This document shows positions 424 through 64,000 of a stretch of DNA of 64,000 bases, piece after piece (position 1 is the first letter of the stretch; each line of letters opens with the position of its first letter). The notes below the pieces were generated by a model, which worked only from the letters and a program-made list of their open reading frames with translations, made no database searches and was not told where the DNA came from. A program made the translations under genes and the position numbers. Source of the stretch: Acidimicrobiia bacterium UBA4744. Its GTDB lineage: Bacteria > Actinomycetota > Acidimicrobiia > Spongiisociales > UBA4744. The stretch spans positions 183,627 to 247,626 of the forward strand of contig DHIO01000026.1 of assembly GCA_002403855.1 (NCBI GenBank). Reading direction: 5' to 3'.

Positions 424-2070
424 TCAGATTGGTTCCGCCGGCTCGCTGTCGATGAGGTGCTCGATGGTGCGAAGCAACTGGGGAACCTGGAAGGGTTTGG
501 TGATGAGACCGTCCATCTCGGCTTCGGCCAGGTTGTCGTCTAGCTCGGAAACGGTATCGGCGCTCATGGCGATGATGGGGACACGCTCGCCAATCTCTTC
601 GACGCCACGAATGGCCGCGGCGGTCTCGAACCCGCCCATGCCCGGCATCCACAAGTCGAGCAACACGATGTCGAAGCGATGGCTTCGCACGCTCTCGATC
701 GCCTCAGGTCCGCCGGCTGCAGCCGATACGTGATGGCCGCGCCGCTCCAGCAACCGTCTTGCGACCATACGATGCGTGGGACTGTCGTCCACTACCAAGA
801 TGTTCAAATGCCGACGCCGCTCCCGCAACCAATGCTTGGTCACCAGAACAGTCAGGTCGAGCGGCGAGGGGCCACCGATCACCGCTTCGATTGCCAGCCG
901 GACGTCGTCGGGCGGGATCGGTTTGGTCAGGTATCCGGCAACATTCAGATCGCGACAGGTTGCCGCATCTCCGCGTTGTCCGATCGCGGTGAGGACAATC
1001 ACGTGCATGGCAGCCAGGTTGTCGTCTTCTCTCAATGACCGTGCGAACTCCAAACCGTCGCCGCCGAGATCACAGACGGTCAGCGCAAAGGGCCGGTCCG
1101 CCGTCCGGGCATCCGTGAGAGCAGTCGCCGCTTCGCTCGGACCGGCGGCTGCGGTCGGCTGCATCCCGGACGAGCTGAGAACGCTCAGCAGTTTGCTTTG
1201 ATTGACCTCATTGTCGGCCACCACGAGTATTGGTAGCCCCTCGAGATCCGATCGCCCCTTCAGTGGAGCCGACACCATCTCCTCCGTGGCGAGGACCAAA
1301 GGGACGGTGACGTGAAACGTGCTCCCGTGGCCGAGTTCGCTTTCCGCCCAGATTTCGCCCCCCATGATCTTCACGAGCTGGCGGGAAATGGACAGACCCA
1401 GGCCGGTTCCCAGTTCCCGGCGGCCGTTGGGGTTCCCCACTTGTTCGTATGCTTCGAAGATCGACTCGAGCTTGTCGGGTGGGATCCCTGACCCGGTGTC
1501 GGCTACCTGCACGTGGACCACGGCTACGGTTGACTCCGGTTGCCGGGCACTCACTCCAACCGTGACGGCGCCTTCTTCGGTGAACTTCACGGCATTGCCG
1601 ATCAGGTTGATGACGATCTGGCGCAGCCGACCGGGGTCCGCCACGACCAGATTTGGCACATCGTCCTGAAGGCTCAAATCGAGACCGATGCCTTTTTCCT
1701 CGGCGGCCACAACCATCGATGTGACCGCGTCGCGCAGATTGTCGCGGAGATTGAAGGGGATCGCCTCCACCGTGAGATGACCGGCCTCGATCTTCGACAA
1801 GTCGAGCAAATCGTTGACCAGCGTGAGGAGAGCGTCGGCGGACGTGTTGACCACCTCGACATATTCCCGCTGTTGAGGAGTGAGTTTGGTCTCCAGGGTC
1901 ACTTGAGCCATCCCGAGAATGCCGGCAAGCTGCGTCCGCATCTCATGACTGACCTCGGCCAGGAATCGAGATTTGGCGTGACTGGCCTCTTCGGCGGCCT
2001 CGACGGCCGACCTGAGCGCGTTTTCTGTTTCCTCCCGATGCGATCTACTGGTCTCGTCGAGCATATCCAC
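424..2070 (-). CDS. soluble hybrid sensor histidine kinase (HisKA-HATPase plus two receiver-like domains, no input domain)
   Basis: H-box SRFLAEVSHEMRTQL. HATPase boxes NLIGNAVKFT, DTGSGI, GTGLGLSI. First receiver-like domain is ILVVADNE...CDLGGDG...YLTKP and the second canonical receiver is ILVVDDSPTHR...LLDLWMPGMGG...ITKP. No TM or PAS/GAF lies before the H-box. Confidence 0.85.
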   Translation of the reverse strand: MDMLDETSRSHREETENALRSAVEAAEEASHAKSRFLAEVSHEMRTQLAGILGMAQVTLETKLTPQQREYVEVVNTSADALLTLVNDLLDLSKIEAGHLTVEAIPFNLRDNLRDAVTSMVVAAEEKGIGLDLSLQDDVPNLVVADPGRLRQIVINLIGNAVKFTEEGAVTVGVSARQPESTVAVVHVQVADTGSGIPPDKLESIFEAYEQVGNPNGRRELGTGLGLSISRQLVKIMGGEIWAESELGHGSTFHVTVPLVLATEEMVSAPLKGRSDLEGLPILVVADNEVNQSKLLSVLSSSGMQPTAAAGPSEAATALTDARTADRPFALTVCDLGGDGLEFARSLREDDNLAAMHVIVLTAIGQRGDAATCRDLNVAGYLTKPIPPDDVRLAIEAVIGGPSPLDLTVLVTKHWLRERRRHLNILVVDDSPTHRMVARRLLERRGHHVSAAAGGPEAIESVRSHRFDIVLLDLWMPGMGGFETAAAIRGVEEIGERVPIIAMSADTVSELDDNLAEAEMDGLITKPFQVPQLLRTIEHLIDSEPAEPI

Positions 2071-2192
2071 CGGTCCAGGCTGGCAAGAGCGTCACCCCAT
2101 GTAGTTCGATTCCGCTCGGAATCCTCTCTTGCGCGTATCGGCAACTCGAGAAGCCCGGTTTAGGAGAGAATCCCGATCCGTCCTCCGGGTCC

Positions 2193-3569
2193 TCAACCAT
2201 GGAGATCGTCTAGAGAGCCGAACTGGCTCTCGGCCGGTTCCGCTCAGCAGAACCACGGCTCAGTGAGCCGGGGACTCCTTTCGGCCACCGGAAGGAAGAA
2301 GTCCGATGAACCCATGATCTCGCCGGCGAGGACGGCGAACAACTCGCGGCCCTCCAGACCGTCGGCCACACCGGATTTGTGGAGTTCGGTCAGGCGAGCA
2401 TGCAGGGCATCCATGCGGGGGTCTGCTGCGTGCCATCGCCAGCCGAGTGATTCCTCGTCGTATGCGTCGAGATAGGGTACGAGCTCGGGCAGGTCGAGGA
2501 GCAGCGAGCCTCGGGGGATCAGGAGGCGGATCGTGAGCTGGACGGGATCGACGTTCCCGATGAGACGATGGTCGACGACGAACCTCACGAGGTCGCGAAG
2601 ATCGTCGAGGGATGTCCAAGGTGTGAAGGGCAGCCAGGTTGGTCGAATCTCTATGCTCTCTCCGCGCAGGAGCCGGACGGCGGCCTCCTCGTCGGCGCGG
2701 GTATGGCCCTTGTCGAGCAGGCGAAGGGTCTGGTCGTTCGTCGTCTCGAAGGCCGACACGACGAACAGCAACCCGGACGCCGCCAGCTCGGGCCACAACG
2801 CGGCGTGACGGATGATGAGTTCTACTTTGGTGGTGAGATCGAACGTCAGGTGAGGGTGCGCGGCGTGCATTGCCCGCACCACCCGCAGGGAGTGGGCGGG
2901 AGCGTTGAAGAAGTCTGCATCGCCGAACGTCACATGACTGGCACCTAGTTCGACCAATTGACCGATATCCGCAAGAACGCTGGCTTCGTCGACGACGCGG
3001 ATCCTCCCTTCGTAGACGACCGGGATCGGGCAGTGACGACATCGATGCCGGCACCCGTGACTGGCCTCTACGTTTCCCACCTTGCGGCGCTCGTCACCTA
3101 CTTGAAGATGTGCATACCTCTCAAGTGGCGGCAGGCTCGTTCGAGAAGGTACATGGAACTTCGTCTTGCCCAGCTCGACCAGCCGGGAGCCACGCGGGCG
3201 ACGTCCCCGGCGGATTTCATCAGCCCAGCGAAGGAGACCGGGCTCGTATTCCCCCGAAACGGCATGATCGAATGGCGACTCGCCGCTATCAAGGCCAAAC
3301 CCGGCATACAGGCCGTAGGCACAAACCGGCAGGCGAGGATAGGCGGCCTTCACCATTCGGGCGGCCCGTGTAGCCAGCCTCATCGCCGTATGCATCGGGA
3401 CTGAGAAGGCCAGCCCGTCCGACCACTCGAGGTCCTCACGGTCGAACCGTTTCACGGACAGATCGACGGTCCGGACTTGATGACCGGCACCACTCAATGC
3501 CGCCGCCGGAGAGGCCAGGTGCAGCGGCTGATGGCCGAGCTCGTAGGTAGACGCGAGGAGAACCTTCAT
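2193..3569 (-). CDS. B12-binding-like/radical SAM protein, probable selenoprotein (C-U-A-E-P tail; in-frame UGA at 2244-2246 read as Sec)
   Basis: CRHRCRHC is the CxxxCxxC radical SAM cluster motif. The N-terminus MKVLLASTYELGHQP looks like a B12-binding-type Rossmann start. The six-frame ORF stops at UGA 2244-2246 after ...EPWFC. Read-through gives U-AEP-AESQFGSLDDLHG, then UGA at 2193-2195. A hairpin lies 12 nt downstream of the first UGA. Confidence 0.8.
2213..2231 (-). promoter_or_regulatory. putative bacterial SECIS hairpin downstream of the in-frame UGA
   Basis: The minus-strand mRNA forms a perfect 7-bp stem GAGAGCC/GGCUCUC with the 5-nt loop AGUUC. The stem begins 12 nt after UGA (2244-2246). 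The apical loop contains G and U, as in bacterial SECIS models. Confidence 0.5.
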
Positions 3570-3719
3570 CGAGTCGATAGGGTACGGTACTCGACCGTCT
3601 TAGGCGCGGTGCTGCAGCTGGGAATAGCCGCACTGCAACGCTATGTTGGTTCACGAGCCCGCGGCCGGATGTCGGTTTGTTGATCCGGCAGGCACTCTCA
3701 GGGCACAACGGAGCAGCTG

Positions 3720-3944
3720 ATGGCCAAAGAGAAGGATGTCATCCGAGTACAGGGGGTCGTACGCGAGACCCTCCCGTCCGCCATGTTCAGAGTAGAAATC
3801 GACGGTGGGCATGAGGTACTGGCTCGCGCCTCGGGCAAGATGCGGCGCGGCCGCTACATTCGTATCCTCCCCGGGGATCGGGTGGATCTCGAGATGTCCG
3901 CTTACGATCCAACCCGGGGCAGGATCGTCTGGCGCTATCGCTGA
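3720..3944 (+). CDS. infA: translation initiation factor IF-1
   Basis: 74 aa with an S1-like fold. [26 protein letters not shown]...[15 protein letters not shown]...[13 protein letters not shown] aligns along its whole length to bacterial IF-1. GGAG lies 6 nt upstream of the ATG. Confidence 0.93.
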
Positions 3945-3950
3945 CCTTCG

Positions 3951-4415
3951 TTGGATCCGGCCACGATTCTCTTTGTTTGCACTGGGAACATCTGCCGGTC
4001 TCCGCTGGCAGAAGTCGCCGCTCTCAGTGCTTTGACCGCTCATTTCCAGGTACCGGAACTCGGCGTCGCGGGTCTGCGCGTCGCTAGTGCCGGAACCCAT
4101 GCAATCAGGGACCGGCCGCCAACGCCCGAAATGCAGGCGGTTGCAGCCGAGGTGGGACTCGACCTCTCCAAACATCGGGCAACCCAGGCGGAGCCGAGGG
4201 AGCTGGCCGGCGCCTCCTTGGTCTACGCGATGGAAGTGAACCAGGTCATCTGGCTTCGGTCGCAGCGACCCGACATGCCGGTGGAACTACTCGGCGAGGC
4301 GGACATCGACGATCCATACGGCTCCACCTTGGCGGAGTACCGACGAGCTCGCCAAGAGATCGTGGCCGCCGTTCAAGCTCGCCTGCCGGAGATGATCGCT
4401 CTTGCCGACCACTGA
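3951..4415 (+). CDS. low-molecular-weight protein tyrosine phosphatase family protein
   Basis: The N-terminal P-loop LFVCTGNICRSP (C-X5-R-S) and the DPYG general-acid loop are present. The size (154 aa) is typical. Confidence 0.85.
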   Translation: MDPATILFVCTGNICRSPLAEVAALSALTAHFQVPELGVAGLRVASAGTHAIRDRPPTPEMQAVAAEVGLDLSKHRATQAEPRELAGASLVYAMEVNQVIWLRSQRPDMPVELLGEADIDDPYGSTLAEYRRARQEIVAAVQARLPEMIALADH

Positions 4416-62959: not shown

Positions 62960-64000
62960 ATGTCGGGCGCCCCCTTCCGTAATGTGGCGTTGATCGCGCA
63001 CGTCGACCATGGCAAGACGACCCTGGTCGATGCCATGCTGTCCGCAGCGGGTGTCTTCGCTTCACATCAGGAACCCGTGGAGCGGGTGATGGACTCGAAC
63101 GAGCAGGAACGCGAGCGTGGGATCACCATTCTCGCCAAAGCCGCCTCGATCGACTGGAAAGGCACGAAGATCAACCTGGTCGACACCCCGGGGCACGCCG
63201 ACTTCGGGGGTGAGGTCGAGCGAGCGCTGGCCCTGGTAGACGGAGTCCTGCTGCTCGTCGACGCTGCCGAAGGGCCGATGCCGCAGACTCGGTATGTTCT
63301 CTCCAAGGCACTCGCTCTTCATCTGCCGGCAGTGGTGGTGGTCAACAAGGTCGACCGGCCCGATGCCCGGGTAGCAGCGGTTGTTGATGAGGTGTACGAG
63401 TTGTTCTTCGATCTCGAGGCAGCCGACCACCACATCGAGTTTCCCATCATCTCCTCGATTGCTCGCCACGGCAAGGCGGTCGGCGGAGTCGGCATGCCGG
63501 GGAAGAATGACGACCTGTCCCCGCTGCTGGATGCCATGGTCGAAACGATCCCTGCCGCGGCCGGCGATCCGCAGGCTCCGTTGCAGGCGTTGGTAACCAA
63601 CCTCGACGCGTCGGACCACCTCGGCCGGCTCGCAATCGGGCGAGTGGTCCAGGGCACCCTCCGTTCCGGCGAACAGATTGCCCTCTGCCACTCGAACGAC
63701 GAAGAGCCTCCCCTCAAGCGGAAACTGGGCCAGTTGATGGGTTTCGCCGGGTTGGGCCGGATCCAAGTTGACGAGCGCATTGCCGGCGACCTCTTCGTCG
63801 TGGCCGGCTTCCCGGAAGTAGAAATCGGCGACACCCTGGCTGATCCGACCGACCCTCGCCCTCTGCCCCGTCTCCAAGTCGACGAACCGGTCTTGCGCAT
63901 GACGTTCGGCGTGAACACATCCCCCCTGGCCGGGCGCGACGGAACCCTGCTCACCTCCCGGCAGATCCGCGAACGCCTGGAAAGGGAAGTGCTCGGCAAC
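62960..64000 (+). CDS. typA: translational GTPase TypA/BipA, N-terminal part (3' end outside the window)
   Basis: It is not in the ORF track because it is open at the window end. [24 protein letters not shown] (G1), [14 protein letters not shown] (G3), NKVDR (G4). The frame stays open through 64000. Confidence 0.93.

Follow-up and report, generated by a model that had tools for sequence, protein, structure and literature searches.

A gene for a radical S-adenosylmethionine (SAM) enzyme lies on the minus strand near one end of a 64,000-nucleotide stretch of DNA from Acidimicrobiia bacterium UBA4744 (contig DHIO01000026.1; the whole stretch is called the window below). Its open reading frame (ORF) appears to stop at a UGA codon at 2244-2246, which is almost certainly read as selenocysteine (Sec), to judge from comparison with homologous genes. 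We consider it very probable that the gene encodes a 458-residue selenoprotein of the CUAEP/CCAEP-tail radical SAM family, and that its UGA codon is decoded by way of a Sec insertion sequence (SECIS) hairpin. This reading is directly supported by the equivalence of UGA and Cys codons at this site, by the conservation of the frame downstream of UGA, by a covarying hairpin that is specific to the UGA forms of the gene, and by the membership of the protein in the family. With UGA decoded as Sec, six-frame translation and most gene callers drop the last 17 residues.

The read-through frame and its family

The minus-strand ORF at 2244-3569 (441 aa) begins with an ATG at 3569 and has the C-terminus ...RLTEPWFC, followed by the TGA at 2244-2246. 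Its start residues, MKVLLASTYELGHQ, match the family consensus in the alignment. Past this TGA the same frame reads A-E-P and thirteen further codons before it reaches a second TGA at 2193-2195. A preliminary description of the window had reported this ORF end, the UGA codon, the C-U-A-E-P motif formed upon read-through, the second UGA and a hairpin between the two, and all of its coordinates and sequences were correct on re-reading. It had also proposed that the radical SAM gene is a selenoprotein cut short by ORF calling, a proposal that passed each of the tests by hidden Markov model (HMM), by homologues and by the hairpin. The features of the locus are as follows.

2193-3569, minus strand: predicted full-length CUAEP-tail radical SAM selenoprotein gene, 458 codons including Sec442, plus the predicted true stop; from sequence, translation and the family model NF040546
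3030-3053, minus strand: CxxxCxxC motif (C173, C177, C180), predicted ligands of the radical SAM [4Fe-4S] cluster; from invariance and PF04055
2244-2246, minus strand: in-frame UGA, predicted Sec codon, residue 442, next to the invariant Cys441; from TGA/TGC/TGT equivalence and Sec/Cys switches
2196-2243, minus strand: 16-codon tail AEPAESQFGSLDDLHG, made only upon UGA decoding; in frame and conserved after every TGA
2213-2231, minus strand: predicted SECIS hairpin with a 7-bp stem GAGAGCC/GGCUCUC and the apical loop AGUUC, starting exactly 12 nt past UGA; from folding and covariation
2193-2195, minus strand: predicted true stop of the selenoprotein, UGA; orthologues stop 13-20 codons past the Sec codon, and no terminator-like site follows
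2236-2254, minus strand: RNA palindrome GGUUCUGC/UGA/GCGGAACC that can place UGA in a triloop; from minimum free energy (MFE) folds, role uncertain

The curated cutoff of NF040546, the HMM of this family, is 500 bits. The UGA-truncated ORF scores 497.9 bits in a match that ends at profile position 457 of 468, and read-through raises this to 517.3 bits (C at the UGA position) or 510.9 bits (X) over profile positions 1-467. The 10 additional aligned tail residues lift the score by 13 bits (X) or 19 bits (C), which is more than random post-stop sequence would give, and this tail is needed to clear the cutoff. The preliminary description had held that the C-U-A-E-P motif is unlikely to have arisen by chance; the gain in score argues for this, as does the joint occurrence of UGA, tail and hairpin in 34 other genomes. 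It had also given the name of the family, 'CUAEP/CCAEP-tail radical SAM (seleno)protein', correctly, and had called its role not established, in line with the report that curated the family together with its Sec site and described it as uncharacterised (Haft 2022, bioRxiv 10.1101/2022.07.06.499078). According to the same report, CU motifs are rare and tied to heavy-metal chemistry. No later paper on the family turned up in our literature search.

The gene is a new, ordinary member of this already catalogued selenoprotein family; it is also found on Logan contig SRR5325130_18. It shares with the family the full profile above cutoff after read-through, the C-U-A-E-P and CxxxCxxC motifs and a Sec site equivalent to the Cys of CCAEP; nothing essential differs, and the tail begins with AEPA where most members have AEPT. 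No sequence found is more than 73% identical to the protein, and its four closest relatives show 70-73% identity. A Pfam match to PF04055 (Radical_SAM) covers residues 169-307 (40.2 bits), and C173, C177 and C180 are invariant in alignments of 30 and of 58 sequences. PF02310 (B12-binding) matches the N-terminal domain with 23.4 bits, below the Pfam cutoff of 32.1. An AlphaFold model of a Cys-form homologue (P0077, CCAEP, 57% identical to the window protein; predicted local distance difference test score 93.6) consists of a Rossmann-like domain and a radical SAM barrel and resembles AprD4 (the best match, template modelling score 0.68), OxsB, MgmA and TsrM. AprD4 is not known to use cobalamin. 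A sequence search of the PDB gave no close solved structure.

Comparison with homologues is most informative at the UGA codon itself. Among the 120 top-matching protein clusters, the sequence stops right at ...WFC in 56, reads on as CCAEP in 59 and as CCSEP in 4, and the window's ...WFC-UGA-AEP aligns with the CCAEP of the 59. We took 80 loci from species-representative genomes (numbered with the prefix L below) and tallied the codon after WFC in 77 of them: it is TGA in 35, TGC in 33 and TGT in 9. Genes that end at WFC do not simply stop there, since each of the 35 TGA codons is followed by an in-frame AEP(T)xxQ[FL]G[PS]L tail (with SEP in one case) and by a stop 13-20 codons on; past this second stop the sequences of homologues are unrelated. 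The Sec residue of the window protein is thus aligned with a position that is Cys in the other 42 loci, and at least 8 Sec/Cys switches are needed on a neighbor-joining tree. An in-frame tail combined with repeated Sec/Cys switching is the usual pattern of a selenoprotein family.

These counts also bear on the idea that an error of sequencing or assembly turned TGC into TGA, or that UGA is reassigned throughout the genome. The codon is indeed one base away from the Cys codon of the 42 homologues. However, the identical truncated protein is present on 3 independent contigs and TGA stands at this site in 35 other species, which argues against an error, and neighboring ORFs with standard stops give full-length domain matches (an 881-aa acyl-CoA synthetase-like protein and kinases), which argues against reassignment. 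Either explanation is highly improbable.

Two variants of the Cys-containing tail were seen among the homologues. A subclade of metagenome-assembled genomes (MAGs) of Acidimicrobiaceae/Acidimicrobiales (L058, L063, L068, L071 and others) has C-C-S-E-P in place of C-C-A-E-P. In addition, a 468-aa protein from a JGI metagenome (P0027) has the C-terminus ...WFCCAEPTEAQLCCAEPTEAQLAGAP, in which the ten-residue tail CCAEPTEAQL is duplicated in tandem.

The hairpin downstream of UGA and its decoding

The 7-bp hairpin is part of the MFE structure computed with ViennaRNA, in which the 73-nt region reaches -31.2 kcal/mol (z = -2.25 relative to shuffled sequences). Every one of the 34 UGA loci that could be scored has a hairpin of 7-8 bp in this register, which the Cys forms largely lack: its mean energy is -13.1 kcal/mol in the 34 UGA loci versus -4.6 kcal/mol for the same 25 nt in the 42 Cys loci (Mann-Whitney p = 8e-13, a generous figure because the lineages are related). 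In the 34-sequence alignment, 95.7% of the stem cells can pair, versus 29-65% when the partner strand is slid. Compensatory double changes affect 4 of the 7 stem pairs; 15 cells carry such changes versus 3.5 +/- 1.6 in shuffles, and none of 500 shuffles reached 15. These changes alter the encoded residues (AGC..UCU gives S..S, GGC..CCU gives G..P, and GAC..GGU CCU gives D..G P), so that the tail over the stem reads E-S-Q-F-G-S in the window, E-G-Q-F-G-P in most homologues and E-D-Q-F-G-P in others. Because compensatory changes rewrite the protein, RNA pairing is the feature under constraint. In the loop, whose consensus is AGUUN, positions A23, G24 and U26 are invariant.

From the aligned hairpin sequences of UGA forms we built a covariance model of the family SECIS. 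It gave 56.6 bits at the window hairpin, 55.7 bits on a Sec locus absent from its training set and 11-15 bits on most Cys loci. Three Cys loci, L057 (9384-9428), L059 (9360-9404) and L040 (9315-9359), scored 26-39 bits and carry a SECIS remnant; in the tree a Sec clade is the sister group of each, which suggests that these remnants are fossil SECIS elements left by recent replacement of Sec with Cys.

The intactness of tail and hairpin bears on the possibility that UGA is a real stop, that the protein ends at ...WFC, and that both elements are relics of a lineage that lost Sec decoding. The lack of Sec machinery in the window fits such a history, as do the truncated annotations made by gene callers, and by RefSeq for Thermomicrobium roseum TRD_RS12835, and the 497.9 bits that the truncated ORF still scores. 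However, a relic would decay, as the element does in true Cys-switched lineages (11-39 bits versus about 56), whereas both the frame of the tail and the hairpin have stayed intact in the window and in its four closest relatives, from which the window tail differs mainly at synonymous sites or by compensatory changes; the truncated form, moreover, falls below the family cutoff. We therefore regard the relic explanation as quite improbable.

A GC-rich stem-loop right after an apparent stop could also be a transcription terminator or an mRNA-stability element of a gene whose stop is the first UGA. Against this, the hairpin lacks a U tract and a terminator scan of 1900-3800 was empty; the hairpin lies within a conserved frame, is present only with UGA and is lost with UGC or UGU; and its fixed 12-nt spacing and conserved A-G-U-U loop suit a decoding signal. 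There is very little chance that the element serves termination or stability instead.

On these grounds the hairpin at 2213-2231 is best read as a bacterial SECIS element, as the preliminary description had suggested from its placement 12 nt after UGA and its shape. Like the archetype in E. coli fdhF, it is a stem-loop within the coding sequence that starts about 11-12 nt after UGA, with a conserved apical G-U about 23-25 nt from the U of UGA. It differs from the fdhF element in having a perfect 7-bp stem without a bulged U and the loop AGUUN, and in having no Rfam model. By analogy with fdhF, the apical A-G-U-U loop would recruit SelB with Sec-tRNA(Sec) while UGA is in the ribosomal A site; Sec would then be placed beside the invariant Cys441, and 16 further codons would be translated up to the stop at 2193-2195.

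Several points weigh against Sec decoding of this gene. The E. coli fdhF SECIS has a bulged U that the window hairpin lacks, and Rfam gave nothing relevant, either across the whole window at gathering thresholds or at 2150-2300 at permissive E-values. The compared lineages are related, and p-values accordingly overstate their independence. As the preliminary description had stated, the window contains none of the genes of the Sec machinery: ARAGORN found no tRNA in its 64 kb, including tRNA-Sec, and tblastn with E. coli SelA, SelB and SelD as queries found no selA, selB or selD there. Nor did the window yield a second selenoprotein gene. The decoding machinery is therefore assumed for this genome, and we infer both that Sec is actually inserted at UGA and that selA, selB, selC and selD are located elsewhere in the genome.

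These searches yielded a few candidates that were set aside. The sole tblastn match in the window, a SelB-like GTPase domain at 62984-63406 that runs off the window end, was judged from sequence alone to be of the TypA/BipA type. Seven candidates in the window for genes split by a single in-frame TGA have low-complexity downstream frames and look like shadow frames, and the covariance model detected no second site there (next-best score, 14.2 bits). ARAGORN found no tRNA-Sec in 28 Sec-form loci. A tblastn search of all loci gave a weak match to the SelB GTPase domain in L031 (33% identity over 103 aa). The only Sec-machinery gene in any fetched locus is a selA homologue at 9012-9713 of L060 (contig CAZCVW010000110.1 of a Burkholderiales MAG), which shares 54% identity with E. 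coli SelA over 238 aa and is located about 7 kb downstream of a gene of the Cys form (CCAEP).

The palindrome around UGA is a separate matter. The W-F-C and A-E-P codons are mutually reverse complementary and can form an 8-bp stem with UGA as its triloop; the same arrangement is seen at 9361-9379 of L086. At the synonymous third position of the Ala codon, a base that can pair (G or A) stands in 85% of Sec loci versus 14% of Cys loci, most of which have C. The palindrome may simply follow from the WFC and AEP codons; it could also be a second recoding structure, or reflect an effect of the +4 to +6 context on termination.

Gene neighborhood and a cultured carrier

Neighbors of the gene were counted by tblastn and checked against called genes. 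In 52 of the 64 loci with enough flanking sequence, a gene for an ATP-grasp protein of the L-amino-acid ligase type (PF13535 and LAL_C2) immediately precedes the radical SAM gene on its strand, at a distance of 7-33 nt where both genes were called. A gene for an NfuA-like Fe-S carrier is located divergently upstream in 54 of 59 loci, and a gene of the SaoD/DsrE family (NF040913, 196.8 bits versus a cutoff of 152) is found just downstream, often in convergent orientation, in 17 of 72 loci. The module of Nfu-like, ligase and CUAEP/CCAEP genes occurs outside the clade of the window (L008-L081, e.g., L084 5993-9359 and L085 6125-9359), and we found no description of it in the literature searched. 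The CCSEP loci L058, L063, L068 and L071 keep the Nfu neighbor and lack the ligase.

In the clade of the window itself (the window, L002-L007 and L021), no ligase, Nfu or SaoD-like gene occurs within 8 kb, and none is present anywhere in the 64-kb window. The neighborhood consequently informs a hypothesis about the family and not the window gene directly. The latter is flanked by infA, which encodes a 74-aa initiation factor IF-1 (PF01176; 3720-3944, plus strand, as called on the matching contig), and by two histidine-kinase genes; other neighbors include Sir2 and a flavin mononucleotide reductase. A 174-aa ORF upstream (3651-4175, minus strand) has no family match and is probably a spurious shadow ORF, given that infA is what was called there, on the opposite strand.

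One UGA form occurs in a cultured organism, T. roseum DSM 5159, where it is located on the megaplasmid NC_011961.1 (L086, 7935-9458; TRD_RS12835, WP_012643191.1). The RefSeq protein ends ...ESWFC, and the DNA continues as TGA-AEPLEDPSGPVASQVRMVDQPLR. Its downstream hairpin is different (GGACCC-GUC-GGGUCC), and its gene neighbors are a pyridoxal phosphate-dependent aminotransferase and a major facilitator superfamily transporter, not the ligase module. Provided that the strain possesses Sec machinery, T. roseum would lend itself well to experiments.

Relationship to ArsL and possible function

The second-best family for the window protein is ArsL (NF040542), with 264.9 bits; the third scores 55 bits. 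The protein is 31% identical to a plasmid-encoded ArsL over 389 residues (E = 1e-47). ArsL is the radical SAM enzyme of arsinothricin biosynthesis, which cleaves SAM at the C-gamma-S bond to yield methylthioadenosine and a 3-amino-3-carboxypropyl species that, according to recent work, is bound to the cluster iron. The enzyme attaches this group to arsenite (As(III)) held by the three Cys residues of its C-terminal RCCLKC tail, and removal of the tail abolishes C-As bond formation and leaves SAM cleavage intact.

The window protein is built like the enzymes of this sister family, with a Rossmann-like domain at the N-terminus, a radical SAM barrel and, at the C-terminus, a short tail rich in Cys; identity is about 30% across the entire core. 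It is not an ArsL: the score is well below the NF040542 cutoff of 450 bits, the RCCLKC motif is missing, and the arsM, arsQ and arsN context of ArsL genes, judged against a genuine arsQ-arsL-arsM cluster, is not found in the window. In contrast to RCCLKC with three Cys, the tail C-U-AEP offers two chalcogens, and no arsM, arsQ or ars operon is nearby. In the pairwise alignment, RCC of RCCLKC falls on FCU of the window protein, with only the CC/CU dipeptide aligned.

Based on this relationship, the enzyme core might perform ArsL-type chemistry, i.e., transfer of 3-amino-3-carboxypropyl from SAM. The mobile C-terminal Cys-Sec pair would then bring a soft thiophilic atom (a chalcogen or metalloid) into the active site, or would be the nucleophile itself, and a selenolate might be favored as the stronger nucleophile or ligand. 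We offer ArsL-like chemistry, in which the Cys-Sec tail either bears the nucleophile or acts as one, as a tentative possibility. It is weakened by the presence of two chalcogen ligands in the tail versus three in ArsL, by the lack of ars genes near the window gene, and by the absence from its clade of the ligase, Nfu and SaoD-like neighbors of most of the family.

The principal functional alternative is that Cys-Sec forms the selenenylsulfide tail of a redox shuttle like that of thioredoxin reductase (TrxR), which would deliver or remove electrons, or resolve an intermediate, in a canonical 5'-deoxyadenosyl radical reaction and would not hold a substrate as in ArsL. A C-terminal vicinal Cys-Sec pair is a hallmark of mammalian TrxR (GCUG), the combination of a Rossmann-like domain and a radical SAM barrel is shared with AprD4, OxsB and TsrM, most of which make 5'-deoxyadenosine, and a tail with two chalcogen ligands instead of three suits a shuttle. 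However, ArsL is the nearest characterized relative by a wide margin (265 versus 55 bits), its tail binds the substrate and does not shuttle electrons, and no thioredoxin-like or reductase partner is conserved beside the gene. We consider the redox shuttle doubtful as an account of the enzyme. TrxR and the mercuric reductase MerA, which have unrelated folds and belong to other enzyme classes, are analogies only. In both, an adjacent Cys-Sec or Cys-Cys pair on a C-terminal extension is believed to swing into the active site, where it brings electrons in the case of TrxR and Hg(II) in that of MerA. The redox or relay function suggested in the preliminary description is a reasonable one, and by analogy the ArsL precedent would point at least as strongly to a tail that holds a substrate.

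Extended to the whole CUAEP/CCAEP family, the ArsL analogy would make its members 3-amino-3-carboxypropyl transferases whose tail carries, or is, a chalcogen or metalloid nucleophile and whose product is an unusual 4-substituted 2-aminobutanoate. We think this broader proposal rather unlikely as it stands. If it were true, the co-transcribed L-amino-acid ligase would join the product into a dipeptide in most lineages, the adjacent Nfu would service the Fe-S cluster, the SaoD/DsrE-like protein would feed sulfur or selenium, and soil Actinomycetota and Chloroflexota would possess an unrecognized, widespread small-molecule pathway.

The gene should be annotated as a selenoprotein of 458 residues. 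A call of 441 residues falls under the family HMM cutoff and leaves out the best candidate for a catalytically important residue. About half of the database entries of the family are cut short in this way, as is the RefSeq record of T. roseum. Current knowledge of the family is not overturned by these data; rather, the question of its function is sharpened. What is added is a defined family SECIS, a single site at which Sec and Cys have repeatedly been exchanged, the placement of ArsL as sister family and a conserved neighborhood of ligase, Nfu and SaoD-like genes, which together lead to a concrete and testable biochemical hypothesis for this family.

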